Source of the DNA: a virus
Direction: 5' to 3' (one strand)
Length of the DNA stretch: 52,845 nucleotides
Virus record (IMG/VR): IMGVR_UViG_3300034251_000012
Location: 1 to 52,845 of that record
In this document: one piece after another, positions 16,495 to 52,845 of the stretch
Layout: every line of letters begins with the position of its first letter
Numbering within the stretch: position 1 is the first letter of the stretch
Made by a program: the position numbers and the translations under genes
Notes under the pieces: model-generated
Databases searched by the model: none
The model's input: only the letters and a program-made list of their open reading frames with translations
What the model was told of the DNA's origin: nothing

Positions 16495-16713
16495 TCAGCC
16501 ATACCTGCCACGCGGCATGTACTGATCCTGAATTCTGAGCAACTGGTTGTAGCGCACCTGCCAGTCGTCCCGGATGTAGTTGTGGAGCGCGCGCGTGACG
16601 TCCGTGTCGGTGAAACCAAAGTAGGGAGCCGGCGCGGTACCATCCCGGTCCGCCATTGACTCTTCCACTTCCGGCACTTCACTGCTCTCGATCATGGTTC
16701 GTTCGTTACCCAT
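16495..16713 (-). CDS. Hypothetical protein
   Basis: A 72-aa ORF abutting the upstream receiver gene (1-nt overlap). Confidence 0.45.
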   Translation of the reverse strand: MGNERTMIESSEVPEVEESMADRDGTAPAPYFGFTDTDVTRALHNYIRDDWQVRYNQLLRIQDQYMPRGRYG

Positions 16714-17132
16714 CAGTGGACTTCATTAGAGGCAGGTACGGTCATAACTTCGACCTTCGGCCGGAGCGCAGCCTCAACAGCGGCGAAGAGTGCTGCCGGC
16801 TCGATTGGCTTCCGCACAACCTCTGCATTCCCGACGAAGCGAGCGTGCGGCCCGGTCATGTCGTCCATGTACGCCGTGACGAAGATGATCGGCTCGCCGT
16901 AGCCCTGCTTTCTGAGTCGCCGCGCGAGCGTAAAGCCGTCCATCACGGGCATCGCCCCATCGAGGAGAAAGAGGGTGTAGCGGCCGGGGACGATCATCGC
17001 GAGGGCTTCCGCGGCGCTCATCGCCATCTCCACCTGATAGCCCTTCACTTGTAATGTGCGGGCGATCATCTCGGCTTCGAGGTCGTCAACGACGAGCAGG
17101 CGCGGGTCTTTATCGGGCATGTCTGACTCCAT
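16713..17132 (-). CDS. Stand-alone response-regulator receiver (CheY-like REC) domain protein
   Basis: All canonical REC positions are visible: LLVVDD, LFLLDGAMPVMDG (phospho-acceptor Asp), IIFVTAY (Thr) and VVRKP (Lys). There is no output domain. Confidence 0.85.
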   Translation of the reverse strand: MESDMPDKDPRLLVVDDLEAEMIARTLQVKGYQVEMAMSAAEALAMIVPGRYTLFLLDGAMPVMDGFTLARRLRKQGYGEPIIFVTAYMDDMTGPHARFVGNAEVVRKPIEPAALFAAVEAALRPKVEVMTVPASNEVH

Positions 17133-26955: not shown

Positions 26956-27492
26956 ATGGTAAATCAGATGGGGGCCGACATGGTCGTTACATTCGGCGAC
27001 TGGATCAAGGCCAAACGAGAAGCTAGGGGCATGTCACAAACCGAGTTGGCTCGGTTGTCTGAACCTTGCTCACAAGGTTACATCTCCAATCTGGAGCGCA
27101 ATTCTTACGAGCGCCGAGACGAGATGAGCAACCAGCCGAACAAAGACCTGGTGATCAGGATCGCGCAAGCACTCCAGTCTTCCGAGACGGAAGCCCTGGA
27201 GGCCGCAGGCTACATCGTGCATCACCCCGAGCTTAACGCGAACCAACTGCGAGCTGCTGACTTGATAATCTTGCTCCCGAAGGACAGGCAGGAAGAGCTG
27301 ATCCGCGAGATGGAGTTGAAGGTGCAGATGTACGGTCACGGCGGCGGTGGCAGCGGTGCCCCGTCCGTCAAGCCAGGTGATGAACTCTGGCGACAGCCCA
27401 TCGGCACGACAGCTCAGAAACACCGGAAGGGCAAAAAGGCGGGCAAGAACACAGTGAGGAGGCCGCAGTCGTCAGATCGCCGAACGGCATAG
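26956..27492 (+). CDS. CI-like XRE-family repressor lacking an S24 autocleavage domain
   Basis: The HTH is MSQTELARLSEPCSQGYISNLERN. The C-terminal half is Gly-rich and basic with no Ser-Lys peptidase-like region. Confidence 0.7.
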   Translation: MVNQMGADMVVTFGDWIKAKREARGMSQTELARLSEPCSQGYISNLERNSYERRDEMSNQPNKDLVIRIAQALQSSETEALEAAGYIVHHPELNANQLRAADLIILLPKDRQEELIREMELKVQMYGHGGGGSGAPSVKPGDELWRQPIGTTAQKHRKGKKAGKNTVRRPQSSDRRTA

Positions 27493-27546: not shown

Positions 27547-27777
27547 TTACGGCAATATGAAGATGAGCAGAGTGGTCAGCTCATCGATCAGTATTTCGCC
27601 GAGGGGTGTGTCTTGTGCCTCGTCAGAGGTGCTAACCGAGGGTGAGGCCGGAGGCGGGGGAGGGGGCATCCGGTCGCCGCCAGTGACAATGATGCCCTCG
27701 GCCATGACGAGGGATGACAGAATACAGGTCATTACGAAGGCACAGATAGTGTGCCTCACCAAATTTGAAAATCTCAT
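27547..27777 (-). CDS. Small secreted pro-peptide candidate (76 aa)
   Basis: The N-terminus MRFSNLVRHTICAFVMTCILSSLVMA-EG looks like a Sec signal peptide. It is followed by a poly-Pro linker and a hydrophobic C-terminus LTTLLIFILP. The start is set at the internal ATG at 27777, with GGAAAGG upstream. Confidence 0.45.
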   Translation of the reverse strand: MRFSNLVRHTICAFVMTCILSSLVMAEGIIVTGGDRMPPPPPPASPSVSTSDEAQDTPLGEILIDELTTLLIFILP

Positions 27778-27896
27778 TTTCTTGTGAGCCTTTCCTGAGT
27801 GAAGGCCGGCTTCGACTGCGAATCGACGCCGACGTAAATACACAAACCCAATCCGAAGTGTATCATAGGGTTAAGGCTCTCAAGAATTATACGATC

Positions 27897-29291
27897 ATGC
27901 ATCTCACGGTTTATTCTCACAAATCGTACCTTCCCTCCATCCCCGATGAGAAGGCCGAACACGCGCTGGCGACAGCGCGGCAATTCAAGCAGCAGGGATG
28001 CTATGAAGAGGCGCGCGAGACCATCGCCGACTACTGGCAGGACATCGGCTCCCGTTACAACATAGACTCGCTCTCGGAGCCTGTGCGAGCCCGCATGTTG
28101 CTCATGATCGGAAGCCTCACATGCGCCCTCGGAACCCAGCGGCGCATGAAGGGCGCGCAACGCATTGCCCGAGAGACGTTGCGACTCTCGATTCAACTCG
28201 CGACCAAAGTCAATGACCCCGATCTCGTTGCAGCAGGCTTGTGTGAGGTCGGCTACACGTTTTACCGGGACGGTAAACTTGACTCGGCAAGAGTGATACT
28301 ACGCAAGGCCGAGCAGATCGAAGGTTTAGTTGAAGGTGAGACGCTCGCCTTTATCCGCTATCGACAGGCCTGCGTTGAGCACCTTTTAGGCAACCTCGAC
28401 GAGGCTTACAGTATCCTGACTCAAAATGCTCGCCTTTTCGACATACATGTCTCCGGCAATGAGAACCTAATCGGCGGCTTTCACAACCTACTCGCCATCG
28501 TACTGCTGGGCTTAAGCACTACAACTTCAGAGTCTACCTTTATAGACCGAGCTTTCATCGAATACTATGCTGCCCAGTATCATTTTCAGCGCGCTGGTCA
28601 TACTCGTTTTGAAGCTGCTGCCCTGAACAACATCGGCTTCATCCTGTTCACTCAGGGGAAGTTCGATGAGGCTCATGACTATCTCGACCGCGCCCGGACA
28701 ATTTTCATCGCGGTTGATGACGCCGCCCGTGTGGCACAGGTGGACGAAACTCGTGCGCGCGTTTACACGGCTCAGGGTGACCTCGAAAAGGCCGTGACCC
28801 TCATCAACGCTGCGGTCGCCAGCCTGAGAACCACCGAAGAAAGAATGCTCCTTCGCGAGGCTATCGAAGAGCAGGCGAAGATCATCAAACTCGCCGTCGA
28901 AAAGAGCATCAGAGTCCCGAAATTCTGTCACCTCTCAAGTGCCGATAACATGCGTAACACCGCTCAGAAGAAAGAGGAGGACGTTTTCACTCTTGAAATG
29001 GCCGACGGGGATGAATCACTCGCCGATGCAGGCATCCAGCCGGGCGACATCATTCCTTTCCTGAGCACGAGCACCGCTGATCCTGGCCGTTTCGTCGCGG
29101 CCTTTCACATGCGCAAGCAGACCTACCTCATGGGCTTCTACTATCCGGGCGTCGAGCCTCCGCCGGAATCGGGCTACGAGTTCGACGATGAAGTAACCAT
29201 GTTCCGCTACGCCAACGACGAATACGATCCAGACTATTTCCTGCCTCACGAAATAACAATCATCGGCATCCACCCCACGCTCCGCCATTAA
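27897..29291 (+). CDS. TPR-repeat protein fused to a LexA/S24-like C-terminal domain
   Basis: TPR-like repeats are present (e.g. AALNNIGFILFTQGKFDEAHDYLDRARTIF). The C-terminus EMADGDESLADAGIQPGDIIPF...GRFVAAFHMRKQTYL aligns by eye with LexA GDSM...GD...K. The start is set at the ATG at 27897 to avoid overlap with the divergent peptide gene. Confidence 0.65.
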   Translation: MHLTVYSHKSYLPSIPDEKAEHALATARQFKQQGCYEEARETIADYWQDIGSRYNIDSLSEPVRARMLLMIGSLTCALGTQRRMKGAQRIARETLRLSIQLATKVNDPDLVAAGLCEVGYTFYRDGKLDSARVILRKAEQIEGLVEGETLAFIRYRQACVEHLLGNLDEAYSILTQNARLFDIHVSGNENLIGGFHNLLAIVLLGLSTTTSESTFIDRAFIEYYAAQYHFQRAGHTRFEAAALNNIGFILFTQGKFDEAHDYLDRARTIFIAVDDAARVAQVDETRARVYTAQGDLEKAVTLINAAVASLRTTEERMLLREAIEEQAKIIKLAVEKSIRVPKFCHLSSADNMRNTAQKKEEDVFTLEMADGDESLADAGIQPGDIIPFLSTSTADPGRFVAAFHMRKQTYLMGFYYPGVEPPPESGYEFDDEVTMFRYANDEYDPDYFLPHEITIIGIHPTLRH

Positions 29292-29350: not shown

Positions 29351-29380
29351 TTGACAGATTATCACAGCTTGTATTATCAT
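29351..29380 (+). promoter_or_regulatory. Near-consensus sigma70-type promoter of the rightward early operon
   Basis: TTGACA (29351-29356), N18, TATCAT (29375-29380), about 64 nt upstream of the first ORF. Confidence 0.65.
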
Positions 29381-30109: not shown

Positions 30110-30581
30110 ACTTCCCTTCGACCCCGGCGACGACGATGCGGCCGACGAGCGCGAGTTCGAGGCGTTGACAGAAGCTCTCAACGAAGTCACAGCGAAATGC
30201 GCGGCCGGCGCTGTCGAACAAGACCGCGCCAACGCGCGCCGCGCGGAACTGATGAGCGCGGTCGGAAACCACCGCCGCCGGCGCGCGCGCACGCTGCTCG
30301 ACCGGTTCCTCCCGCCCATCACCTTCTACCAGATCGAGTTTGCCGACCCGACGCCCGAAGAGATCGTTGCCTTCGCCGACGAGAGCGTCGAGGTGGACGC
30401 CGAGATACGGCGACACCAAAAGCTCCTCGGTCTCACCGACGCCCTCGTCAATCAATTCGTGCGCCAGACGTGGAAAATATCCGCGCGCTGGCCTGACCTC
30501 AACTTCCGTTACCGGCGCCTGCTGCTCGGGGCGCTCCGCGAAAAGGCGAAGCCTTTAACATCACTCAAAGGAGCACTTTAA
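30093..30581 (+). CDS. Hypothetical acidic protein (162 aa)
   Basis: GTG start at 30093 preceded by GGAGGAGG at optimal spacing. The upstream part of the 233-aa track ORF is out-of-context Arg/Ser-rich sequence. Confidence 0.55.
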   Translation: MSALLKLPFDPGDDDAADEREFEALTEALNEVTAKCAAGAVEQDRANARRAELMSAVGNHRRRRARTLLDRFLPPITFYQIEFADPTPEEIVAFADESVEVDAEIRRHQKLLGLTDALVNQFVRQTWKISARWPDLNFRYRRLLLGALREKAKPLTSLKGAL

Positions 30582-32386
30582 TGTCCGCTGTCATTGATCC
30601 GAACATTCGCGCCCTTCATGCCCGCCTCTCGATGGACGATCTGGAGATCGTCGAGCAGCTCGGCCTTTGGGGCTGGACACTGGTCGCCGACGGCCGCGGC
30701 TACCGCTGGGAGAAAGAAAAGGGCGTCGGCGGTAGCGCAATTCTGATGGAAGACGAGCAGGTCGTCTCGATGGCGCGCGAGATGATGTCGCGCATGGATG
30801 AGCCGGCCGCGCCGGTCGAAGCGGCTCCCGGCGCGCCGACAGAAGAGCCGGCCGCTGTCCTCCCGGACGATCTCAGCGCGCTCGGCTGGGTGCTCCTCAC
30901 GAATCACGGGATGTGGTTCTGCCGTCAAGAGGAAGCCAACCTGACGACCGGCATGAAGAGCAAGGTCAAGGCCGCGTTCGACGAGGCGCGGGAGATTCAG
31001 GCGCGGCAGCCCATTACCACGCAGGAGACCTCCGAAGAGTTGCCGGAGATGCCCCAAGACCTCGCCGACGTGGGCTGGACGTTCAAGCGTGAGGGCGACG
31101 AGTTGTACGCGGAGCACGAGGAGCGTTATGTCTGCACGAGTCGCGACCAGTCAGACCCGGCCGTCGTCATCGCCGAGGCCTACAGCATGCAGGAAGACTA
31201 CGAGCGAAGCGTCGAGGAGGCGAATCGCGTGCCGGTGCGCCCCAACACAACCGCTCCTGACGAGCAGTTGCTTCCAGTTGATTCCATCCGTCTCGACGGC
31301 GACACGCAGACGCGCGCGCAGCTCGACATGCTCACCATCACCAACTACGCCGAGTTGATGCGCGGCGGCACCAGATTTCCTCCGGTCGAAGTCTTCTTCG
31401 ACGGCGAGCATTACTGGCTCGCCGACGGCTTTCACCGCGTCGCCGGGACGAAGCAGGCCGAGATCACCGAGATCAATGCCAACATCCGGCCGGGCACGCA
31501 GCGCGACGCGATTCTCTTCTCCGTCGGCGCGAACGCGCTGCACGGCCTCCCGCGCACGAACGCCGACAAGCGGCGCGCCGTCGAGAAGCTCCTGACCGAC
31601 GAGGAGTGGCGCGGTTGGACGGACGGGCGCATCGCTGACGCCGCCGGGGTCTCCCCGCCCTTCGTCAAGTCCATCCGCGACGAGTTCACTCAAAAGGGAT
31701 TAGAGTCGCCGGCCGTGCGCATCGGGAAAGACGGGCGCAAGATCGACACCTCCAACATCGGCGACCGCGAGGCGGCGACGGCCGCGGCCGAGGCGCAGCC
31801 GGAGCTGCCGGGCGCGGCCGCAGTGGAGACGGCCGCTGGTGACGCGCCGGCTGCCGTTGCCGATAATTCCCTCTCAAATGAGGAGCCGAAAAAGGCAACG
31901 AGCTTGCCCGCAGGCGTCTCGGAAGCCCCGGGCGACACTCAGGCCGCACCGGTCGCCGCCGCCCCGCCAGAGGTCACGCCTGCGCAGACCGCGGCCGTCG
32001 CAGCACCCGCTGCCGCTGGAGTCGCATGGCCGGAGCAGCACCTCATCATCACCTTCGACATCAAGGCCGGGAAGTCGTCGAAACGCGCAGTCACGATCTC
32101 AGGTCGCGCCGGAGAAGGCGTGCCCGTCTTCCTCACCGAGTTCACCCTCGCCGACCTCGAACCGATGTCTACCGCCTTCGCCTCGCTCGTCGGCCGGCTG
32201 GGCGGTGGCGTCGGCGCGCCCGCGGTTACTCCTACGGTCGAAGCCGAGGCCGAGGCCGCGCCCACCAACGCTCCCGCAAAGAAGGGCGGCGGGCGGAAAC
32301 CGGCGAAGCGTGCCACGAAGAAAGCCGCAGCCAAGAAAACGAAGAGCGGGAAAGCTAAACAGCCCGCCAAACAGGCGCGCGGGTAA
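30581..32386 (+). CDS. ParB/Srx-fold (ParB N-terminal domain) protein with triple N-terminal repeats and an Ala/Pro/Lys-rich tail
   Basis: The ParBc hallmark is present: VDSIRLDGDTQTR...HYWLADGFHRVAG...ILFSVGANALHGL. There are three ~45-aa GW-containing repeats at the N-terminus and a Lys-rich C-terminus. Confidence 0.8.
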   Translation: MSAVIDPNIRALHARLSMDDLEIVEQLGLWGWTLVADGRGYRWEKEKGVGGSAILMEDEQVVSMAREMMSRMDEPAAPVEAAPGAPTEEPAAVLPDDLSALGWVLLTNHGMWFCRQEEANLTTGMKSKVKAAFDEAREIQARQPITTQETSEELPEMPQDLADVGWTFKREGDELYAEHEERYVCTSRDQSDPAVVIAEAYSMQEDYERSVEEANRVPVRPNTTAPDEQLLPVDSIRLDGDTQTRAQLDMLTITNYAELMRGGTRFPPVEVFFDGEHYWLADGFHRVAGTKQAEITEINANIRPGTQRDAILFSVGANALHGLPRTNADKRRAVEKLLTDEEWRGWTDGRIADAAGVSPPFVKSIRDEFTQKGLESPAVRIGKDGRKIDTSNIGDREAATAAAEAQPELPGAAAVETAAGDAPAAVADNSLSNEEPKKATSLPAGVSEAPGDTQAAPVAAAPPEVTPAQTAAVAAPAAAGVAWPEQHLIITFDIKAGKSSKRAVTISGRAGEGVPVFLTEFTLADLEPMSTAFASLVGRLGGGVGAPAVTPTVEAEAEAAPTNAPAKKGGGRKPAKRATKKAAAKKTKSGKAKQPAKQARG

Positions 32387-32407
32387 GCGTCGCCGAGAAG
32401 GAGATTT

Positions 32408-32794
32408 ATGGCGTTAGTGAAAATCGACGGGGCGGAGATCGAGCTGCCCGACGACATGTGCAAAACCGACAAGGGTGTCCGCGACGCCCTCACCCCCTAT
32501 TACCCGGGCGCGGCAAACTCGGACGTGAAGCGCGAGACGAAGGGCAGCGCGACGATCATCACGGTGACAAAACGCGCGGGCAGCAAGGGCAGCTACGCGG
32601 CCGTCTTCGAGGCGCTCGAACGTGCCCCCGAAGAGATCACCCCGCTTCTCCTCTTGTCGCCGCGCGCGCGCCGCGGCGACGTGGACGCTGCGCTCTCGCG
32701 TTCACTGGAAGACGCGCGGGAGGTGGCGCGCGCACGCGCGGCGCTCGACGCCGCGCCCTCTGTGGCTGCGGCGGATGTCCCGGAAGGGTTCTGA
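32408..32794 (+). CDS. Ubiquitin-like (beta-grasp, PRTRC protein C-like) domain with a ~67-aa C-terminal extension
   Basis: The first 61 aa end in TVTKRAGSKG, resembling from memory the small PRTRC Ubl proteins that end in G-x-K-G. A strong AAGGAG RBS is present. Confidence 0.55.
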   Translation: MALVKIDGAEIELPDDMCKTDKGVRDALTPYYPGAANSDVKRETKGSATIITVTKRAGSKGSYAAVFEALERAPEEITPLLLLSPRARRGDVDAALSRSLEDAREVARARAALDAAPSVAAADVPEGF

Positions 32795-32804
32795 GATTGA
32801 AGCC

Positions 32805-33698
32805 ATGAACCTCCGCTCCGTCACACGGATCAAGTCGCAGCTCCTCGCCGCCCCCGCGTTCATCAACGTGCGGGAGGCGGCGGTGCGGCTCGTCAGCGCC
32901 CGTGACCGCTGCTCGCCCGGGGAAGCGCTGAGGCGCATCAAGATGGACGGGGATTTCACGGACGTCCTCGACCTGCTCCGTCTCGTCCTACCGGAGCCGG
33001 AGCAGGAGTGGCGACGCAAGTTCGTCACCATCTACGACCTCTCGCCCGTGCTCGGCTTCCCCATCAATGAAGATTACATGATGGACATGGCCGAAGAGTG
33101 GCGTGCGGAGGGCGCGCGGATCGGAGACATGTCAATCCCTTTGTACAGTCTGAACCCCACCGGCGAGAATTATAGCTCCGTGTCGCTCGCCTACTCGCTG
33201 GCCCTGCTCCTCGACCGCACGCCCTCGGCCGAGGAATACCGGGGATCACGCATTGACGATGAAGTGTGGGCGCGCCTCTCAGTTACATACGACCTCGAAC
33301 CGGCGGATAGACCCGAGGGTGGCGTCTCTGACGAGGCAATCGAGGCGACCTTCTCCCGGCAGCGCAACCCCCTGCGCTACATACCGCGCGCGCAGGCCGT
33401 GACCCGCTACGACACCGGGTGTGGCTTCCTCGACTTCAATGACGAGTGGGGCGATGCGGACATTGAATGGTCGCGCCAGAACGTGATCTGGCTGCGACGT
33501 GACTACAAAGACTCCCAGCGGATTCTGAAACGAATTGAGAAGCTCGACGAATGGCTGAAGCGCGATACGACGGAGCGCATCTCGCTCGCCCTCAGACTTT
33601 ATCGCAAGGCGCAAAACACAGATGTCAAGAAAAAGCAGACAGCCCGCATCCCCGTCAACACCGGAACAGGCGGCCGAGCGCTCGTTGATGTTCTTTGA
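32805..33698 (+). CDS. Cassette protein of unknown function (297 aa; occupies the position of PRTRC protein F)
   Basis: Internal ATG at 32805 (MNLRSVTRIK...). It lies between the Ubl and the E2-like gene. Confidence 0.5.
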   Translation: MNLRSVTRIKSQLLAAPAFINVREAAVRLVSARDRCSPGEALRRIKMDGDFTDVLDLLRLVLPEPEQEWRRKFVTIYDLSPVLGFPINEDYMMDMAEEWRAEGARIGDMSIPLYSLNPTGENYSSVSLAYSLALLLDRTPSAEEYRGSRIDDEVWARLSVTYDLEPADRPEGGVSDEAIEATFSRQRNPLRYIPRAQAVTRYDTGCGFLDFNDEWGDADIEWSRQNVIWLRRDYKDSQRILKRIEKLDEWLKRDTTERISLALRLYRKAQNTDVKKKQTARIPVNTGTGGRALVDVL

Positions 33699-34332
33699 CG
33701 GGCAGATTCTCTACCGCAGGCGCACCGAGCGCGGCGAGCAGTATAAGTTCTTATCACCGGCCGCCGTGGCGGAGGCCTTTCGGCAGGCGCCCTTCGACAC
33801 CGGCCACCTGCCGCCCGGCGTCTTCAGGTGCGGCCAGAGCGCGCGCGGCGACTTCGCCGCCCTCGTCATCCCGGCACAGCGTCACGAGCTGTCTGTTGAA
33901 AGCGCGCGCCGCGGCGGCGGGCGGGCGGTGCTCAGTTTGTGGCTGCCGGCATTCGTCTTCTTCGGCATCGCGCAGAGCTATCACGTCTGGGCGGTGAAGT
34001 CGGATGTGACTACGCCCGATCTCGTGCTGCATCACGCGCCGCTGCCGAACGTCTTCAACAACGGCGGCATCTGCTGGGGGCAGAACGACCGCCCCGCCGC
34101 CTCGACGCAAACCATCACCGAGGCGTGGAAACTCTTCATCGGATCGCCATTCAACGAGCATGCGGCGTCGAATAAAGTCCGGGGCGTCGCGGGCGACGTG
34201 CGCCCGTATCTGCGGAACGTCTCACGGTCGAAGAGGCGGTTTCCGCTCGGCGATCTGCTGCCGATGAGGATGCACGGCAGGAGCACGCTCGACCCGGCGA
34301 TCACGGAACTCATTCAGGAAGGTGGGCAATGA
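33688..34332 (+). CDS. E2/UBC-like protein (PRTRC protein B-like)
   Basis: HHAPLPNVFNNGGICWG resembles the E2 HPN...G-x-I-C active-site region. The start is ambiguous (33622 or 33688). Confidence 0.6.
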   Translation: MFFDGQILYRRRTERGEQYKFLSPAAVAEAFRQAPFDTGHLPPGVFRCGQSARGDFAALVIPAQRHELSVESARRGGGRAVLSLWLPAFVFFGIAQSYHVWAVKSDVTTPDLVLHHAPLPNVFNNGGICWGQNDRPAASTQTITEAWKLFIGSPFNEHAASNKVRGVAGDVRPYLRNVSRSKRRFPLGDLLPMRMHGRSTLDPAITELIQEGGQ

Positions 34333-34994
34333 TTCAACTCGCAGGCTATCGCGTCATCCGCCGGGGTGAAAATTTGCAGGACGCGGCGGATCGGTCGGAC
34401 ACGCCCCCGCGCTCGACGATGTTCGATTACCTCTTCGGCGCGAACGGCGTCTTCATCAAGGCCTCGCGCATGTTCCTGAGCGCCTGCGTCCCTGTCGGCT
34501 GGTGCGACATCCGCGGCCTCGCCGTGATCGAGCCATCCGTTGCCCTCGACGCCCCGCGGGTCCCGGCCGCCCTCATCGCGCGCGCGCTGAACCGCTCGCG
34601 TGAAGTGTGTGTGAGAGCGGGCAAGCCCCGGGAGATTCTGTTCTACCTTATTTACGAAGACACCTCGGAGACGACCGGCGAGTGGAGGCTCGTCGAGCCG
34701 GAGCAGATCGCGACCGGCGGGAGCGTCCACCCGACGGACGACGCCGGCGATGAATACCGCCGGGCGATCATCGAGCTGCACAGCCACAATGAGATGCAGG
34801 CCTTCTTCTCGTCGCAGGATGACCGGGACGAGCAGGGCTTCAGAATCTATGCCGTGATCGGAAACATCTTCACGAAGCCCGCCTTGCGCGTGCGCGTAGG
34901 CGTCTACGGTTACTTTTACGAGCTGGCGGCGGCCGACATCTTCGAGTTGCCGGAGGGGCTGGAAGACGCGGCAGAGATCGGAGAGAGACGATGA
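34329..34994 (+). CDS. JAB/MPN+ (JAMM) metalloisopeptidase (PRTRC protein A-like)
   Basis: ELHSHNEMQAFFSSQD gives H-x-H-x7-S-x2-D, with upstream Glu residues. It has an ATGA overlap with the upstream gene. Confidence 0.8.
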   Translation: MIQLAGYRVIRRGENLQDAADRSDTPPRSTMFDYLFGANGVFIKASRMFLSACVPVGWCDIRGLAVIEPSVALDAPRVPAALIARALNRSREVCVRAGKPREILFYLIYEDTSETTGEWRLVEPEQIATGGSVHPTDDAGDEYRRAIIELHSHNEMQAFFSSQDDRDEQGFRIYAVIGNIFTKPALRVRVGVYGYFYELAAADIFELPEGLEDAAEIGERR

Positions 34995-35431
34995 ACATTT
35001 ACATTGCTAGTAGTTGGAAGAATGTCCACGCAGTCGAAATGCTCACCGCATTGCTGCGTGAGCGCGGCCATACGGTGCTGTCCTTCGTGGAAAACAATCA
35101 CGGAGAGAATCCTAACTCGTCCATCAATGAAAAGGCCGGAGAGAAGCCCGTGCCATTCGACGAATGGTGTGCCTCCCAAGACGGCGCTCGCTCGTTCACC
35201 TATGACATCGCAGGCGCGACAACCTCAGACCTTGTGATCTACGTCGGCCCGTCAGGCACTGATGCCTGGGCGGAAGTCGGCGCGGCATGGGCGAGCGGCA
35301 GACTAATTCTCGGGCTGTGGGCAAAGGGCGAGCCGGTCGGGTTGATGCGCCGCATGGTCGAATGGTCAACGGACTATCGCCAGCTACTCATTAACGTAGA
35401 TTCTGTCGTGAAAGCGAAAGAGAAGCAATGA
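34991..35431 (+). CDS. Nucleoside 2-deoxyribosyltransferase-like protein
   Basis: The N-terminus is MNIYIASSW and the segment DLVIYVGPSGTDAWAEVGAAWASGRLILG fits the NDT-like fold signature. The gene is AT-richer than its neighbours and has ATGA overlaps on both sides. Confidence 0.5.
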   Translation: MNIYIASSWKNVHAVEMLTALLRERGHTVLSFVENNHGENPNSSINEKAGEKPVPFDEWCASQDGARSFTYDIAGATTSDLVIYVGPSGTDAWAEVGAAWASGRLILGLWAKGEPVGLMRRMVEWSTDYRQLLINVDSVVKAKEKQ

Positions 35432-36315
35432 GAAAGAACCCGACGACACTCGATCTCTCCTACGCAGTCGCCGCGACCGTCCTCGCGCGCCAGCCCGAGC
35501 GCGGCCCCATCACCTTCTGGCTCGTCGGGTGCGGCGGTAACGGCTCGCACGTCGCGCAGCACCTCGGCCGCCTGCTCTTCTCGATGAAGGCGCGGGGCAT
35601 ACGCGCGCGCGCGATCTTCGTGGATCACGACACGGTCGAGCCGAAGAATGTCGGCCGGCAGAATTTCAGCTCGCCCGAGGTGGGTCGCAACAAGGCCGAG
35701 ACGCTCGCCCGCAGGTTCGGCGCGGCGTGGGGTCTCGACATCGAGGCCGTGCCCTCCCGCTTCAAACACACCATGTTCACGCTCGATGCCGATCAGGACG
35801 AGCTGGGCGTCATCGTCGGGTGCGTAGACAACGCCGCGGGGCGCGTCGAGATGAATAAGTGTCTCTCCCGGAATGGGCAGGGGCGTGTCCCTGACGTGTG
35901 GCACCTCGACTGCGGCAACCACGAGCAGGCCGGGCAGGTGCTCCTCGGCTCCGCGTGGCACGCCGACCAGTTGAAGGGCGCCTTCCCCTCCCGCTCCCTG
36001 TGCCATGCGCTCCCCGGCCCGGCGCTGCAAAGCCCGGAGCTACTCGTCGCGCGCCCCGAGGAGCGGGCGGCGGCGAAGAAGATGTCATGCGCCGAACTCG
36101 TCGCGGCGAACCAGCAGTCGCACGACATCAACGCGGCCGTCGCGGTCGCCGCGAAGACGATGCTCACGCAGCTCTTCCTGACGCGAGACCTGAAGCGACT
36201 CGCATGCGAGGTGAACAATCTGGCAGGCTCGATGCGCTCGACCTACGTCACGCCGGAGGCAGTTGCCCGGATCACGTCCAAGCCGGTCAAATTCATTTAC
36301 AGGGAGGCCGCCTGA
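35428..36315 (+). CDS. ThiF/E1-like adenylating enzyme
   Basis: The Rossmann loop is WLVGCGGNGSHV, followed by FVDHDTVEPKNVGRQNF...VGRNKAETLA, typical of the ThiF/MoeB/E1 family. Confidence 0.85.
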   Translation: MRKNPTTLDLSYAVAATVLARQPERGPITFWLVGCGGNGSHVAQHLGRLLFSMKARGIRARAIFVDHDTVEPKNVGRQNFSSPEVGRNKAETLARRFGAAWGLDIEAVPSRFKHTMFTLDADQDELGVIVGCVDNAAGRVEMNKCLSRNGQGRVPDVWHLDCGNHEQAGQVLLGSAWHADQLKGAFPSRSLCHALPGPALQSPELLVARPEERAAAKKMSCAELVAANQQSHDINAAVAVAAKTMLTQLFLTRDLKRLACEVNNLAGSMRSTYVTPEAVARITSKPVKFIYREAA

Positions 36316-36992
36316 TGGAACTCGGAGAAGTCCGGCGCGCCGCCGAGACGCTTGTCACCATGATGAGCAAATACTGCGAGCGCGTCGAAATCGGCGGCAG
36401 CATCCGTCGCGGGAAGCCGCAGGTCAAAGACATGGAGATCGTCTGCGTACCGAAGTGGGAGATTGCCCCCATCGAGGAGCAGGTGCGCGACCTCTTCGGC
36501 TCGCCGCCCAAGACCCCGGCCAATTTCAACCTGCTGCACTACTGGGCAGTGTGTGAGCAAAAGATTCTGACGTGGATCAAGCCGGGCACGCAGGAGATCA
36601 TCCCGTGGCAGGTGAAGCCAGAGGGCAAATACTGGCGCGGCGTCTTCACCGGCGCGGCGATGGAGAGTTTCAAGCTCGACCTCTTCCTCGCGCGGCCTGA
36701 GAACTTCGGGATCATCCATCTCATCCGGACGGGCGCGGCGGAGTTCTCGGCCGCCGTCCTCGGCCACGCGAAGCACAACACGCCCTACCAGACGGAGAGC
36801 AGCTACTACGAGGAGCACGAGATGAAGGGGAAGCCCGAAGGCTACTTGGTGCGCAAGGCGACCGGCGAGCGGGTCGAGACGCGCGAAGAGCATGATGTGT
36901 TCGAGTTGCTGGGGCTGGAGTATCTGGCGCCGGCCGAGCGGATTGATGGGCGCAGCCTGCGCCCGCTGGCTCGAAGGGTTTCCGAGTCGTGA
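36315..36992 (+). CDS. Pol beta / PolX-like nucleotidyltransferase
   Basis: GGSIRRGKPQVKDMEIVCV (GS...D-x-E) and the C-terminal HDVFELLGLEYLAPAER resemble minimal family-X polymerases. The start overlaps the E1 stop. Confidence 0.6.
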   Translation: MELGEVRRAAETLVTMMSKYCERVEIGGSIRRGKPQVKDMEIVCVPKWEIAPIEEQVRDLFGSPPKTPANFNLLHYWAVCEQKILTWIKPGTQEIIPWQVKPEGKYWRGVFTGAAMESFKLDLFLARPENFGIIHLIRTGAAEFSAAVLGHAKHNTPYQTESSYYEEHEMKGKPEGYLVRKATGERVETREEHDVFELLGLEYLAPAERIDGRSLRPLARRVSES

Positions 36993-37694: not shown

Positions 37695-38789
37695 CTACCT
37701 CCGGGACGGGCTGGAGCTGTGTGTGTGTGTGCATCTCGCGACGCCCTTGTCCGGCCCCTCCGGGTACCAGAAGCCGACGCCGGCGCAGTCCGGGCACTTG
37801 CGCCGCTCTTCCCGGCTGAGCGCGGGCGCGGCCACGCTCTCCAGCACGGTGGCCATCTCCGCCACACGCGCCTTGTCCGCTTTCCACAGGCGGCGGCGCA
37901 GGTGCTCCGAGAGGAACGCCGGCACGTTCGAGACCGTCGTGCGCGCCGCCGCGATCCGCAGCTCCGCGACGAGTATCTCCGCCAGCTCCTCCCACCGCTC
38001 GCCGCTCGTCGAGACCTTGCCCGTCAGTTCCCTCTCGACCTCGATCAGCTTGGCGGTCAGCCGGCGCGCGCCAGCGTCATCATCAGAATTCCCTTCTTTA
38101 GTCTTAATTAAAGTCTTAGCATCACTCGAAGGTGTTGATTCTATAACCACTTGACCCCCTCCACCTCCTACCGGTTTTTGGGTAGACCCTCCACCCAATT
38201 CTTGATCGGAGGTGGGAGGTGGTATGAGGTGGTGGTAGGAGGTGGAGGGAGGGGGCAGCTCTTCGGGAATGAAGACCTCATATCGCGCCCCGTCGTTGTC
38301 GCCGAGTTCCCACTTCTGCACGATCAGCCCGACGGCTTGCAGATGCCTCAGATGCCCGCGCAGGGTGTTGTGACTGATACCCGCCCACTCCATCATGTCG
38401 CCCTGTCTGGCCTGGATCATCCGGACGGGGACGATTGCACCTCGCGTGCGTTGGTAAAGGGCGTCGTAGAGCTTCTTCGACGTGCCTTTGAACAGGCCGG
38501 CCGGCAGCGCGTCGCGGCTGATCGAATTGGCCACCCGCGCGAAATCTCTTCGGGGGGCTGCGTCCTGAGAACTGGGTGGAGGGGGGTGGTGGTAGGTGGT
38601 GGTAGGAGGGGGCAGAGCAGCTTCCACCGGAGACTCGGGGGCGTCGTGTGATCCCGCCAGCAGGAATGCCAGCGCCTTGCGCGCCGGTGTTTTACCTTCC
38701 GGGGCTGCGCGCTCAAGCGCTTCGTTCGCCCGCTGATCCGCTGCTGATAATTTGGTTTTCGGCGGTGGCATGAGCGACCTCTTTCGCAA
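37695..38789 (-). CDS. Second initiator-like / centromere-binding-like protein (paralog of 20575..21654 at the C-terminus)
   Basis: The wHTH-like core is MMEWAGISHNTLRGHLRHLQAVGLIV. The C-terminal CPDCAGVGFWYPEGPDKGVARCTHTH matches CPDCHGKGFWYPAGED...KCKH of the other initiator. Internal DNA repeats encode PPPTTTYHHPPPP and PPPSTSYHHLIPPP. The 5' end overlaps parA by 77 nt, so the true start is uncertain. Confidence 0.55.
   Translation of the reverse strand: MRKRSLMPPPKTKLSAADQRANEALERAAPEGKTPARKALAFLLAGSHDAPESPVEAALPPPTTTYHHPPPPSSQDAAPRRDFARVANSISRDALPAGLFKGTSKKLYDALYQRTRGAIVPVRMIQARQGDMMEWAGISHNTLRGHLRHLQAVGLIVQKWELGDNDGARYEVFIPEELPPPSTSYHHLIPPPTSDQELGGGSTQKPVGGGGGQVVIESTPSSDAKTLIKTKEGNSDDDAGARRLTAKLIEVERELTGKVSTSGERWEELAEILVAELRIAAARTTVSNVPAFLSEHLRRRLWKADKARVAEMATVLESVAAPALSREERRKCPDCAGVGFWYPEGPDKGVARCTHTHSSSPSRR
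38157..38250. repeat. Inverted and direct GGTAGG/GGTGG repeats inside the second initiator-like gene
   Basis: ccctccacctcctacc (38157-38172) is the reverse complement of ggtaggaggtggaggg (38235-38250). Related copies lie at 38187-38196 and 38209-38225. Confidence 0.5.
38575..38612. repeat. Second block of GGTGGTAGG repeats in the same gene
   Basis: ggtggaggggggtggtggtaggtggtggtaggagggggcag; compare ggtggtaggaggtggagggagggggcag at 38231-38258. Confidence 0.5.
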
Positions 38790-39498
38790 GTCGGTTGTAA
38801 TCCAGATACCCGCTTGATCGCGAGTAATCGAGCAGTGGGCGACCGGCCGACATGGCGACCGAGATGTCCGTGTTCAGATTGATCTTGGCATTGAGCAGGT
38901 GGCTCTCGAATTCCTCTTCGAGCCGGCGGCGTAAATTCTCGGACTCTTTGACGCCTTGACGGAAGAAAGTTTGTAAGGCCAGCACTTTCCATCGCTTTGA
39001 GAAAGCCTGACTGAGTCCCGTCATCAGGTCGAGCAGTTCGAGCGCCTCTTTGAGCGCCAGAGAGGATGAGACGGGCACGATCACGTGATCGGCAGCCATC
39101 AGTGCATTGACTGTCAGGAGCCCTAAATTCGGCGGGCAGTCAATCACGGCGTATTCGTATTCCAGCCCTTCGAGGGTGAGAGCCAGTTTCTCTTCACGAC
39201 GGTAGACGTTTCTGAGTTCCACTTCTCCCATGGCCAGCTCGCGGTTGGCAGGGAGCAGGAACGTGTGATCGCGCAGCGCACGAATAGCGTCGGGCGCGAC
39301 CGCACGGCCGAAGAGCACGTCATAGATGGTCGGCGAGAGCAGGTTGGCGTCGAGCGCGAATCCTTGCGCGCAGTGGCCCTGCGGGTCGAAGTCCACGAGC
39401 AGGGTCTTGTGCTTTAAGCCGAGGAAGGCCGCGAGGTTGACAGACGTGGCGGTCTTACCGACTCCGCCCTTCTGGTTCGCGATGGCGATTGTGATCAT
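38713..39498 (-). CDS. parA: ParA/Soj-family partition ATPase
   Basis: The deviant Walker A is IAIANQKGGVGKTATSVNLAA. The protein is 261 aa. Confidence 0.9.
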   Translation of the reverse strand: MITIAIANQKGGVGKTATSVNLAAFLGLKHKTLLVDFDPQGHCAQGFALDANLLSPTIYDVLFGRAVAPDAIRALRDHTFLLPANRELAMGEVELRNVYRREEKLALTLEGLEYEYAVIDCPPNLGLLTVNALMAADHVIVPVSSSLALKEALELLDLMTGLSQAFSKRWKVLALQTFFRQGVKESENLRRRLEEEFESHLLNAKINLNTDISVAMSAGRPLLDYSRSSGYLDYNRLAKEVAHATAENQIISSGSAGERSA

Positions 39499-52316: not shown

Positions 52317-52781
52317 CTATAGTTCGTCCGGGTTGCCTTCGGTCTCACCGAGAGAGCCGTCCTCCAAAGTGTTGACGCCGCGCACGAACACCTGCTCGAT
52401 CTCCAGACTCGTGTTCGATAGCTCGTGGTTGACCCTATTGATGTCCAAAACGTTCTGCGGGAAGTAGCAGAGGTAGTCCTTGCGCTCGTGCGGGTCAGTG
52501 AAGACGATGGGGCGATTACCCTCTCGCTTGCTTTCGACATATAGCTGCCAGATGTAATCGAGGCGGGACACACGGTGCCCGCCCGGCACCGTGACGTAGA
52601 GGTCCGTGTAGAGGCGGTTGTAGCCTATCTGCCAGGAGCGCAGGCCGTTGACTGAACCGACAACGATGTCTTCGCGGTAGCCGCCGGGGAAGGATGCGCT
52701 CAGCAGGGTCTCGTTGAAGTCAATGCGCCGCCGGGCAGCGAAGCCTCTATATAACAATCTCGGAAAAGCCTGATCTGGCAT
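52317..52781 (-). CDS. Distal tail / minor tail protein candidate
   Basis: A 154-aa ORF. Across the circular junction its start (52781, equal to position 63) lies 9 nt downstream of the tape measure stop (73). Confidence 0.45.
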   Translation of the reverse strand: MPDQAFPRLLYRGFAARRRIDFNETLLSASFPGGYREDIVVGSVNGLRSWQIGYNRLYTDLYVTVPGGHRVSRLDYIWQLYVESKREGNRPIVFTDPHERKDYLCYFPQNVLDINRVNHELSNTSLEIEQVFVRGVNTLEDGSLGETEGNPDEL

Positions 52782-52845
52782 AGCCTCACCTCACCTCGCA
52801 AACCCCATGTTGTTGAGCATGCCAAAAGTGGTCTCGTGGTTGGCG
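52719..52845. repeat. Terminal direct repeat, copy 2 (assembly overlap indicating circularity)
   Basis: Exact identity with 1-127. Confidence 0.95.

Follow-up and report, generated by a model that had tools for sequence, protein, structure and literature searches.

A divergent PRTRC-type ubiquitin-like conjugation cassette in a tailed phage genome, with a possible role in element replication

Why would a phage carry a full set of genes for ubiquitin-like protein conjugation? The question is raised by the IMG/VR virus record IMGVR_UViG_3300034251_000012, of which positions 1 to 52,845, the whole stretch of DNA analysed here (the window), include a run of plus-strand genes at 30581-36992 for a ParB-like protein, a small ubiquitin-like protein (Ubl), an E2-like protein, a JAB peptidase and a ThiF-type E1. 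An earlier reading of these genes, the original prediction, recognized an E1/E2/JAB/Ubl cassette of the kind named PRTRC (ParB-related, ThiF-related cassette) and suggested a role in replication, partition or counter-defence. The PRTRC gene set is the operon type '6d' of Iyer, Burroughs and Aravind (2006; PMC1779556). Among the five operon types of 2006, anti-phage activity has been demonstrated for 6B (the cyclic oligonucleotide-based antiphage signalling system, CBASS) and 6C (Bil), and protein conjugation for 6E (Bub); 6D/PRTRC is the type found on plasmids, integrative and conjugative elements (ICEs) and phages rather than in defence islands. The original prediction also held that the function of PRTRC had not been established, and in the literature searched no functional or structural study of PRTRC/6D was found. 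Our answer, offered with confidence about evenly divided, is that this is a divergent PRTRC/6D-type Ubl protein-conjugation module, located in a regulator-proximal operon and serving the replication or establishment of the element.

The predicted plus-strand open reading frames (ORFs) and their start/stop overlaps were all recovered in a check of ORFs and junctions. Overlaps of 1 nt occur at 30581 (TAATG) and 36315 (TGATG), and overlaps of 4 nt (ATGA) at 34329, 34991 and 35428; the genes for a 297-residue protein and the E2-like protein share a further 11 nt (33688-33698). Six genes had been listed in the interval, but the actual count is eight, given a 146-residue gene between JAB and ThiF and a 225-residue gene after ThiF. 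The motifs that had been quoted were located at the expected residues. DGFHR lies at residue 282 of a 601-residue protein, and TVTKRAGSKG ends at residue 61 of a 128-residue protein. The E2-like protein carries HHAPLPNVFNNGGICWG, the JAB protein carries HSHNEMQAFFSSQD, an exact HxHx7Sx2D JAMM signature, and the ThiF/E1-like protein carries GCGGNGS and DHDTVEPKNVGRQNF.

The identities of the E2, JAB and ThiF proteins stand, with Pfam matches above thresholds and catalytic residues conserved across 31-84 relatives. The 214-residue E2-like protein (33688..34332) matches Prok-E2_D (Pfam PF14460, 77 bits, E = 1.9e-21), and the JGI annotation names it 'PRTRC genetic system protein B'. Its candidate catalytic Cys129, encoded at 34072-34074, lies within P-L-P-N...G-G-I-C-W-G and is conserved in all 84 of 84 sequences, with P118, P120 and N121 present in at least 90%; the motif reads P-L-P-N, not H-P-N. 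The 221-residue JAB/MPN+ metallopeptidase (34329..34994; Pfam Prok-JAB, 31.3 bits) has the JAMM residues E102, H151, H153, S161 and D164, with the HxH encoded at 34779, and these are at least 90% conserved in 31 homologues. The 295-residue E1 (35428..36315; Pfam ThiF, 50.9 bits) is a single-domain enzyme of the ThiF/MoeB type, in which the Gly-rich loop GCGGNGS, D66-x-D68, R77-Q78 and D134 are apparent. Its adenylation residues are at least 90% conserved, and a lone near-invariant cysteine, Cys221 (36088-36090), is found in 79 of 80 sequences. Sequence searches for solved structures returned none for E2 or JAB, and no match for ThiF at E <= 0.001. PHROGs hold no family for E2, JAB, ThiF, the small protein or the 297-residue protein.

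The 128-residue protein (32408..32794) was characterised by alignment, AlphaFold2 (AF2) models and profile links. A Ubl domain (residues 1-61, 32408-32590) ends in an invariant K-G, with the Gly61 codon at 32588-32590, and is followed by a helical tail domain (residues 62-128, 32591-32791) ending in an invariant P-x-G-F. In an alignment with 13 close relatives, all of 130-133 residues, the first 61 residues are strongly conserved up to an invariant T-V-T-K-x-A-G-x-K-G, and the second half is variable, its terminal P-x-G-F being invariant. The AF2 model shows a beta-beta-alpha-beta-beta arrangement over residues 2-55 and a helical tail (predicted local distance difference test, pLDDT, 77-80).

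The comparison set comprised about 100 related loci, and cassette searches were made over 87 of these. A hidden Markov model (HMM) of the N-terminal domain, iterated over the 87 loci, found 64 ORFs, including the PRTRC_C protein of Ralstonia phage Dina. The length of the small protein depends on whether the locus has a JAB gene. In JAB-less loci where the gene was captured, the protein ends exactly at G-[RK]-K-G (40/40), and the E2 gene directly adjoins ThiF. In loci with JAB it runs on for 33-394 residues beyond the KG (21/23), and the two exceptions, L029 and L030, encode the tail in an ORF of its own that follows directly. Similarly, canonical phage-borne PRTRC_C proteins bear a hypervariable tail of 60-88 residues in 17 of 18 cases, the other having a single extra residue, and the plasmid versions from Cupriavidus and Xanthomonas have tails of 8 and 63 residues. 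The JAB-less cassette of Alteromonas pAMDE1 encodes a 75-residue homologue that ends in Gly without a tail.

A second kind of precursor was found when the family profile was searched against 1.84 billion representative proteins, which yielded 378 relatives. One of these, P0067, is a 294-residue protein of five head-to-tail Ubl copies, each ending in AGTKG, with a final three-residue cap, DRA; by its sequence it is a bacterial polyubiquitin-like precursor architecture. Its gene lies at 1361-2245 of a 3-kb metagenomic contig (L105) and is followed by an 88-residue ORF. The family profile matches P0067 at 4e-18, and P0067 in turn matches Pfam Prok_Ub at E = 1e-15 over five stretches. Prok_Ub also matches the PRTRC_C of Dina (3e-25) and one JAB-less homologue (6e-6). 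The Ubl of the window can thereby be linked to Prok_Ub transitively, via P0067. A direct alignment of the small protein with PRTRC_C by hhalign places the KG in register at E = 5.3e-4, a marginal value suggestive of distant homology. Given the KG ends, the pattern of JAB and tails, P0067 and the Prok_Ub links, the functional C-terminus would fall at Gly61, with JAB as the obvious maturase. The comparative evidence thus suggests that the 128-residue protein is a pro-ubiquitin-like precursor that matures at Gly61.

The tail itself can be followed as a domain. Its HMM finds it in 22 of 22 JAB-containing loci of the clade and in no JAB-less locus, within the Ubl ORF in 19 loci and as a separate ORF in three (L020 8424-8675, L029 8857-9102, L030 8603-8920). 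The last two residues are G-F in 20 loci and G-Y in the other two. Because JAB is kept where the tail is a separate ORF, JAB tracks the tail domain and not only its fusion to the Ubl.

Two other database matches of the small protein were observed. Residues 3-91 match the PADLOC model PDLC01077, 'C3a152, Type III-C specific', at E = 5.7e-9. By definition the family comprises accessory genes found close to type III-C CRISPR-cas loci, and the match may have no other cause than the proximity of PRTRC-like cassettes to CRISPR loci on plasmids of cyanobacteria. Among viral structures, the small-protein model is matched best by the BFVD entries A0A7R7G2U4 (E = 0.019, probability 1.00) and A0A7R7J324 (E = 0.11), which could be Ubl-like proteins of other ThiF-encoding phages, such as Bacillus jumbo phages.

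The gene upstream of the Ubl precursor encodes a 601-residue protein (30581..32386) that the original prediction called ParB-like. The identification holds in part: residues 223-401 (31247-31783, with DGFHR at 31424) match phrog_1033, 'ParB-like partition protein' (E = 1.5e-21), and align weakly with CTP-binding ParB structures in the Protein Data Bank (PDB; E = 0.05), with DGFHR at the GxRR box, but the Pfam and NCBIfam ParB models do not match the protein. Nor is there similarity to the PRTRC ParB of Cupriavidus (BLASTP E = 2.8). This ParB/Srx-like domain occurs in only four of the 87 loci: L004, which is the window's own contig, L005, L006 and L015. It is followed by an Ala/Pro-rich linker and then by a module at residues 491-540 (32051-32200) that was detected with an iterated profile; the profile was made from proteins whose coding regions adjoin that of the Ubl domain in 18 loci with JAB. 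We refer to it by its place in the cassette as the E-position module. Most of these loci encode it in the ORF that directly precedes the Ubl gene; in a few it overlaps the Ubl ORF as called, and in L020 module and Ubl form one protein. It is found as a protein of 138-225 residues or as a fusion to DUF3102. A Lys-rich tail (32276-32383) ends the 601-residue protein, as it does the E-position modules of L005, L006, L015, L021 and L042. By sequence comparison, then, the 601-residue protein is a ParB/Srx domain fused to a cassette-specific module that is found upstream of the Ubl in relatives. It is probably not the partition ParB, a role made improbable by a separate ParA operon at 37695-39498 and by the patchy distribution of the ParB/Srx domain. 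In the N-terminal 220 residues (30581-31246), three G-W repeats, LGLWGWTLVADGRGY, LSALGWVLLTNHGMW and LADVGWTFKREGDELY, were noticed by eye, and no family matched this region.

Between the Ubl and E2 genes, at the position of PRTRC_F, lies the gene for the 297-residue protein (32805..33698), whose jackhmmer family is present in 80 loci. A search for homologous proteins returned no relatives, and no match was found in PDB, Pfam, PHROG, NCBIfam or PADLOC. It is 30% identical to its positional equivalent in L005 (E = 2e-30). Within the family only D210 and W222 are invariant, with P63 nearly so, indicating a fast-evolving protein. Its correspondence to PRTRC_F is positional only, with a BLASTP E of 0.17 to the F protein of Dina and a profile-profile probability of 0.2%. 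It is probably an adaptor or specificity factor, and a candidate only. A clamp-type motif at its C-terminus ('RALVDVL') was considered and dropped, since the pattern is not systematic across loci.

How close, then, is this cassette to PRTRC? The curated models TIGR03734-03742 define the parts as ParB, E, C, F, B (the E2), A (the JAB) and ThiF. Model matches and a check of gene order agree with the original prediction of an E1/E2/JAB/Ubl cassette of the PRTRC kind. The order ParB-E-C-F-B-A-ThiF on a mobile element is retained, except that ParB and E form a single gene and that A and ThiF are separated by an additional one. Membership by the curated models themselves does not follow, since three fall short of their cut-offs and four find nothing. 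The E1 has PRTRC_ThiF (TIGR03736) as its best match, at 137.3 bits against a cut-off of 144.75 (E = 5e-40, model positions 11-241 of 245). The best NCBIfam match of the E2 is PRTRC_B (TIGR03737), at 62.5 bits against 131.45, and that of the JAB is PRTRC_A (TIGR03735), at 59 bits against 101.8. The models for C (TIGR03738), E (TIGR03741), F (TIGR03742) and ParB (TIGR03734) have no match in the window at E <= 10; the same set matches the proteins of phage Dina strongly. The features of type 6d are present, in that Prok-E2_D, Prok-JAB and ThiF score above the Pfam thresholds, the Ubl connects to Prok_Ub transitively and the 297-residue protein is fast-diverging. On these sequence comparisons the cassette is a divergent sister clade of PRTRC, and this copy a real and intact member of the new clade. 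The two clades share gene order, the Prok-E2_D family of E2, a Ubl ending in G-x-K-G and carriage on mobile elements including phages. The cassette of this phage differs in the tail domain, which is of another family and ends in G-F, in the fusion of ParB/Srx to the E-position module, and in two inserted genes. The clades also differ in range, the clade described here being centred on Chloroflexota, cyanobacteria and Acidobacteriota, and PRTRC on Proteobacteria.

When one genome was scanned for each species, 96 relatives of the E2 emerged, mostly in Chloroflexota (Anaerolineae, Chloroflexia and Ktedonobacteria), cyanobacteria and Acidobacteriota. The nearest plasmid ThiF proteins, at about 40% identity, are from Chlorohelix and cyanobacteria. 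The closest relatives of the whole cassette are two metagenomic loci of phage or prophage type, L005 and L006, in which it follows a TPR/HTH regulator in the same arrangement. In L005 an integrase is next to the cassette, on a 172-kb contig that also has RecA and other cellular genes, and L006 is a 62-kb phage-like contig.

The novelty of phage carriage was overstated in the original prediction. In RefSeq, Ralstonia phage Dina carries annotations for PRTRC E-C-F-B-A-ThiF, and the stretch examined has none for ParB; the canonical cassette was also recovered in 17 IMG/VR viral contigs. PRTRC has also been reported in Burkholderia gladioli prophage AB2 and in BgVeeders33, with its function unstudied according to that 2026 paper (PMC13366799). 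The proposed survey of phage and plasmid databases did find the same gene order, in the copies of Dina, Cupriavidus and Xanthomonas. The cassette is typical of conjugative plasmids and ICEs, and carriage by phages is rare: relatives of ThiF were found in 13 of 50,697 phage records, tblastn of the E2 against the same records gave no match, and a DNA-level search of the phage collection with the cassette gave only a 298-nt match of low identity. IMG/VR contains one relative of the E2 and no small-protein relative of this clade.

The JAB-less form, in L031-L087 from Anaerolineae and related metagenome-assembled genomes (MAGs), consists of the Ubl, a 93-residue ORF, F, E2 and ThiF. The element that carries it is highly conserved and includes a DUF6094 methyltransferase-helicase, a RepB-like primase and SSB. 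The presence of several copies per MAG, for example in isolates CH1 and H89_877, suggests that it is actively spreading.

A link to replication is suggested by the proteins and genes that accompany the cassette in relatives. The consensus for binding the bacterial sliding clamp is QL[S/D]LF, or more generally QxxLF; QLSLPL is a tight binder and QLSLF is the C-terminal motif of PolC (PMC12309361). Among the 18 E-position proteins, 12 end in Q-[LMI]-x-[LF]-F, as in RQLTLF, QQLPLF, EQMTLFG and NQLSLF, and in L017 and L019 the ending is QLSLF, exactly the PolC motif. Examples from L008-L030 are the genes at L011 7925-8521 and L017 8300-8737. The phage-borne PRTRC_E proteins (L001/L088-L104) end in GLDLPI, GLDLF, AVDLF, GVDIF or similar in 18 of 18 cases. 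The background rate of the same C-terminal pattern is 1.8% of ORFs, and most of the background matches are to the methyltransferase-helicase (QLALF) or PIF1-like helicase (RQITLF) of the same elements. In eight loci with JAB, DnaN paralogues lie at most 10 kb from the cassette; the copy in L014 matches solved beta clamps at E = 1e-43, and that in L016 has all three DnaN domains. The order on the Xanthomonas plasmid is DnaN-ParB-E-C-F-B-A-ThiF-SSB, the JAB-less elements have SSB and a RepB-type primase at their flanks, and methyltransferase-helicases and PIF1-like helicases also flank related cassettes. No paper linking these cassettes with DnaN, or reporting clamp-like tips, was found in the literature searched. 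We interpret the E-position protein as a tether that holds the system on DNA or on the replisome by interchangeable means.

The domain identities, the conserved catalytic residues, the KG boundary, the co-occurrence of JAB and tail, and the replication-gene neighbourhood in relatives were seen directly; from these we infer every chemical step that follows, together with the role of the 297-residue protein, the targets and the biological role. JAB would cut the 128-residue precursor after Gly61, freeing a modifier of about 61 residues, of beta-grasp type and ending in Lys-Gly, and a helical tail protein of about 67 residues ending in Gly-Phe. The ThiF-type E1 would adenylate Gly61, probably with formation of a thioester at Cys221, and hand the modifier to Cys129 of the E2. 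The E2 would then join it to lysines of target proteins, with the 297-residue protein probably acting as adaptor or specificity factor, and JAB may also undo the modification. The 601-residue protein would place the system on DNA through its ParB/Srx domain, Lys-rich tail and E-position module, a module that in relatives ends in the sliding-clamp-binding-like peptide instead. In short, the system may act during replication or establishment of the element by modifying host or element proteins that are associated with DNA or the replisome. The proposed conjugation chemistry is well supported by sequence logic. The role in replication or establishment is favoured because of the gene neighbourhood and docking motifs in relatives, the constant association with plasmids, ICEs and phages, and the fact that E2, JAB and F match no defence model.

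A number of findings weigh against this reading. The window contains no DnaN, and no clamp motif ends its ORFs of at least 50 residues or lies inside the cassette proteins, so that by analogy the replisome link of this phage would be borrowed from relatives. The tips of plasmid-borne PRTRC_E proteins are loose (SFELF, PASLW, DLASLL) and could be SSB-tip-like rather than clamp-binding. No homology between the E-position module and PRTRC_E is detectable (hhalign E = 0.2); with BLASTP equally unsupportive, the idea that the C-terminus of the 601-residue protein is a PRTRC_E homologue was dropped in favour of a positional and architectural analogy. The role of JAB is also less simple than maturation: that it serves solely in precursor processing was rejected, as L020, L029, L030 and Sphingobium keep JAB despite a separate tail or downstream ORF. 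The rule that relates JAB to the tail counts few independent events because most JAB-less loci are copies of a single Anaerolineae element family, and the JAB-less lineages number about two. The Ubl identity given in the original prediction holds through the distant links by hhalign and via P0067 and not by direct matches, as the PRTRC_C HMM does not match the small protein of the window even at E <= 10 and Prok_Ub does not match it directly. The beta-grasp fold that had been anticipated is consistent with the AF2 topology, but structure search leaves it unproven and statistically unconfirmed: Foldseek of full-length and domain-only models against PDB and BFVD gave nothing significant (best PDB E = 0.22), and the non-significant matches include the Bil Ubl chain 8tz0_E at rank 8 (TM-score about 0.5) as well as folds of the protein L/G type. 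Two further points bear on the choice between replication and defence. The characterised bacterial systems with E1, E2 and JAB, with or without a Ubl (CBASS type II, or 6B, and Bil type II, or 6C), are anti-phage, and prophages frequently carry defence genes; location in a phage is compatible with defence of a lysogen.

Defence encoded by a prophage or mobile genetic element, or superinfection exclusion, is the first alternative to consider. In a Bil-like manner, the Ubl would be conjugated to proteins of competing phages or plasmids and the lysogen thereby protected. NCBIfam uses the name 'anti-phage 6A-MBL system', the cassette adjoins HTH (helix-turn-helix) and TPR regulators, where genes expressed in lysogens often sit, and the small protein matches the PADLOC model from type III-C CRISPR neighbourhoods. 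Yet the PADLOC models do not match E2, JAB, the 297-residue protein or the ParB-like protein, and the cassette is translationally coupled within a long operon. The genes around the cassettes of relatives are those for DnaN, SSB, primase and helicases, and not those of a defence island; the partner proteins bear clamp-binding-like tips, and conjugative plasmids and ICEs are the typical carriers. We consider defence rather unlikely, although it is a serious competitor.

Counter-defence had been put forward in the original prediction, and could take the form of conjugation of the Ubl to host immune or repair proteins, or of removal of host Ubl or cGAS conjugates by JAB. The carriers are mobile elements that need to establish themselves in new hosts, and in the Anaerolineae elements the cassette adjoins SSB and the methyltransferase-helicase, genes of a sort that conjugative elements typically carry in their early-entry regions. 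The fast evolution of the 297-residue protein and of the tail would also fit an arms race. However, no similarity to known anti-defence proteins was found in the libraries searched, a full E1-E2-Ubl set exceeds the needs of a deconjugase, JAB is dispensable in two lineages, and nothing points directly to immune targets. Counter-defence thus seems improbable.

A bolder form of the replication reading would treat PRTRC/6D cassettes in general as replisome-directed Ubl systems, a bacterial counterpart of the ubiquitylation of PCNA. The protein encoded upstream of the Ubl would dock on the beta clamp or, in this phage, on DNA via the ParB/Srx domain and Lys-rich tail, and E1 and E2 would modify the clamp or clamp-bound replication and repair proteins in favour of element replication. 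The tail domain freed from the precursor would be a second effector. In this general form the proposal is speculative, and we would not expect it to hold.

An accessory role in partition or maintenance, with the Ubl system regulating a ParB-centred segregation complex, is very unlikely. It derives from the name and the ParB linkage in TIGRFAM and in PMC13366799 ('ParB/ThiF partitioning cassette'). Canonical cassettes do begin with a ParB-family gene, and the window, with ParA and no detected integrase, may replicate as a phage-plasmid. Against this, ParA and a partner gene downstream of it form an operon of their own in this phage, most cassettes of the clade lack the ParB/Srx domain, which is dissimilar to a canonical PRTRC ParB, L005 is integrated beside an integrase, and the stretch examined in Dina has no annotated ParB. 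A sulfur-carrier role, with a ThiS/MoaD-like protein or a pathway modifying small molecules or nucleotides in which E1 adenylation leads to a thiocarboxylate, is suggested by the single-domain ThiF/MoeB-type E1, whose next-best NCBIfam matches are ThiF and MoeB, and by the deoxyribosyltransferase-like and Pol-beta-like genes in or beside the cassette, but no sulfurtransferase or rhodanese partner was found, those two nucleotide-related genes are unique to this phage, and the role is barely credible because an E2 with an invariant Cys is always present and polyubiquitin-like and JAB precursor architectures occur. Of the three roles first suggested, replication, partition and counter-defence, only replication appears to gain support from the comparison of sequences.

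The two inserted genes are translationally coupled to the cassette and specific to this lineage. A 146-residue protein like nucleoside 2-deoxyribosyltransferases (34991..35431) matches phrog_12607 (E = 1.1e-13) and, weakly, Pfam Nuc_deoxyrib_tr (E = 0.017). Its gene was not found in L005, L006 or any other locus, and is a lineage-specific insertion rather than part of the cassette core. A 225-residue protein with a region like the thumb of DNA polymerase beta (36315..36992; Pfam PF14791, E = 1.9e-7), coupled to ThiF, likewise has no homologue in any other locus. Together the two coupled inserts are suggestive of an additional step in this phage that acts on nucleotides or DNA.

The cassette is indeed on a phage genome and adjoins HTH/TPR regulators, as first proposed. 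The window comprises the whole genome of a tailed phage, about 52.7 kb in size. It carries an exact 127-nt direct repeat at its termini (1-127 = 52719-52845), from which a complete circular or circularly permuted assembly follows; the unique length is about 52,718 bp once the terminal repeat is subtracted. The phage genes include those for the large terminase, portal, head maturation protease, major head protein, tail-fibre proteins and a tape measure protein of 1,279 residues. The phage is siphovirus-like, with a member of the Chloroflexota as its probable host. Pfam detected no integrase among the window ORFs tested, and a ParA gene (38713-39498, minus strand) lies in its own operon, spanning 37695-39498, with a downstream partner gene of 358-364 residues (37695-38789). 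Given the lack of a Pfam integrase and the presence of ParA with this partner, the phage may persist as a phage-plasmid. Upstream of the plus-strand cassette operon are the genes for an HTH_3 regulator (26956-27492) and a TPR protein (27765-29291). The near-consensus promoter of the original prediction was located upstream of the operon by a consensus scan, as TTGACA-18-TATCAT at 29351..29380 on the plus strand (11/12 matches), a pattern match only, to a consensus that may not be that of the host. Elsewhere in the genome, a stand-alone response-regulator receiver domain protein is encoded at 16713-17132 on the minus strand (Pfam Response_reg, E = 1.9e-18), an unusual cargo placed between the packaging genes and a region with a peptidoglycan-peptidase gene.

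What is new here, with respect to the 6D/PRTRC type, is the predicted maturation site at Gly61, the rule relating JAB and tail, the polyubiquitin-like relative, the nature of the 'ParB' protein as a fusion and the association with replication and the clamp. These provide handles in Gly61, in the candidate residues Cys221, Cys129 and the JAMM histidines, in the JAB-less and polyubiquitin-like variants, and in the clamp-docking hypothesis. If the link to replication is true, bacterial Ubl modification would reach beyond immunity, and mobile elements would have in it a strategy for manipulating the replisome.

Among characterised systems, Bil (BilABCD, types I and II) shares with this cassette separate genes for Ubl, E2, JAB and E1, the absence of an E3, and a Ubl in which a conserved Gly is followed by extra residues that need removal. 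The cassette is not itself of the Bil type: the Bil E1 is a large IAD-AAD-CYS enzyme, whereas the E1 described here has 295 residues and one ThiF domain, and the Bil E2 is of a family other than Prok-E2_D. Bil defends the host and occurs in defence contexts; this cassette, in contrast, is of a kind that lies in the replication modules of mobile elements, and its E2, JAB and 297-residue proteins have no PADLOC match. CBASS Cap2/Cap3 (6B) and the 6A-MBL system have a homologous E1 adenylation domain and share a JAB partner; the window E1 matches PADLOC 'E1-E2' at E = 3e-10 and NCBIfam 6A-MBL cap2_3 at E = 4e-10. In type II CBASS, however, an E2-E1 fusion lies beside a CD-NTase and an effector, whereas the genes here are separate and the window encodes no CD-NTase, and 6A-MBL has a metallo-beta-lactamase that is absent from this cassette. 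Bub (6E) uses Ser/Tyr oxyester catalysis and a DUF6527 protease, whereas here a Cys is conserved and Pfam finds no DUF6527 match. With eukaryotic ubiquitin systems the sequence relationship does not extend past the superfamily level, and the resemblance is one of logic. Ubiquitylation of PCNA shares an association with a sliding clamp, DnaN being the bacterial clamp and its modification hypothetical. Eukaryotic polyubiquitin shares its head-to-tail repeats and C-terminal cap with P0067, and eukaryotic ubiquitin-fusion precursors share with the 128-residue protein a modifier that is joined to another protein and, as would be the case here, freed by a peptidase.

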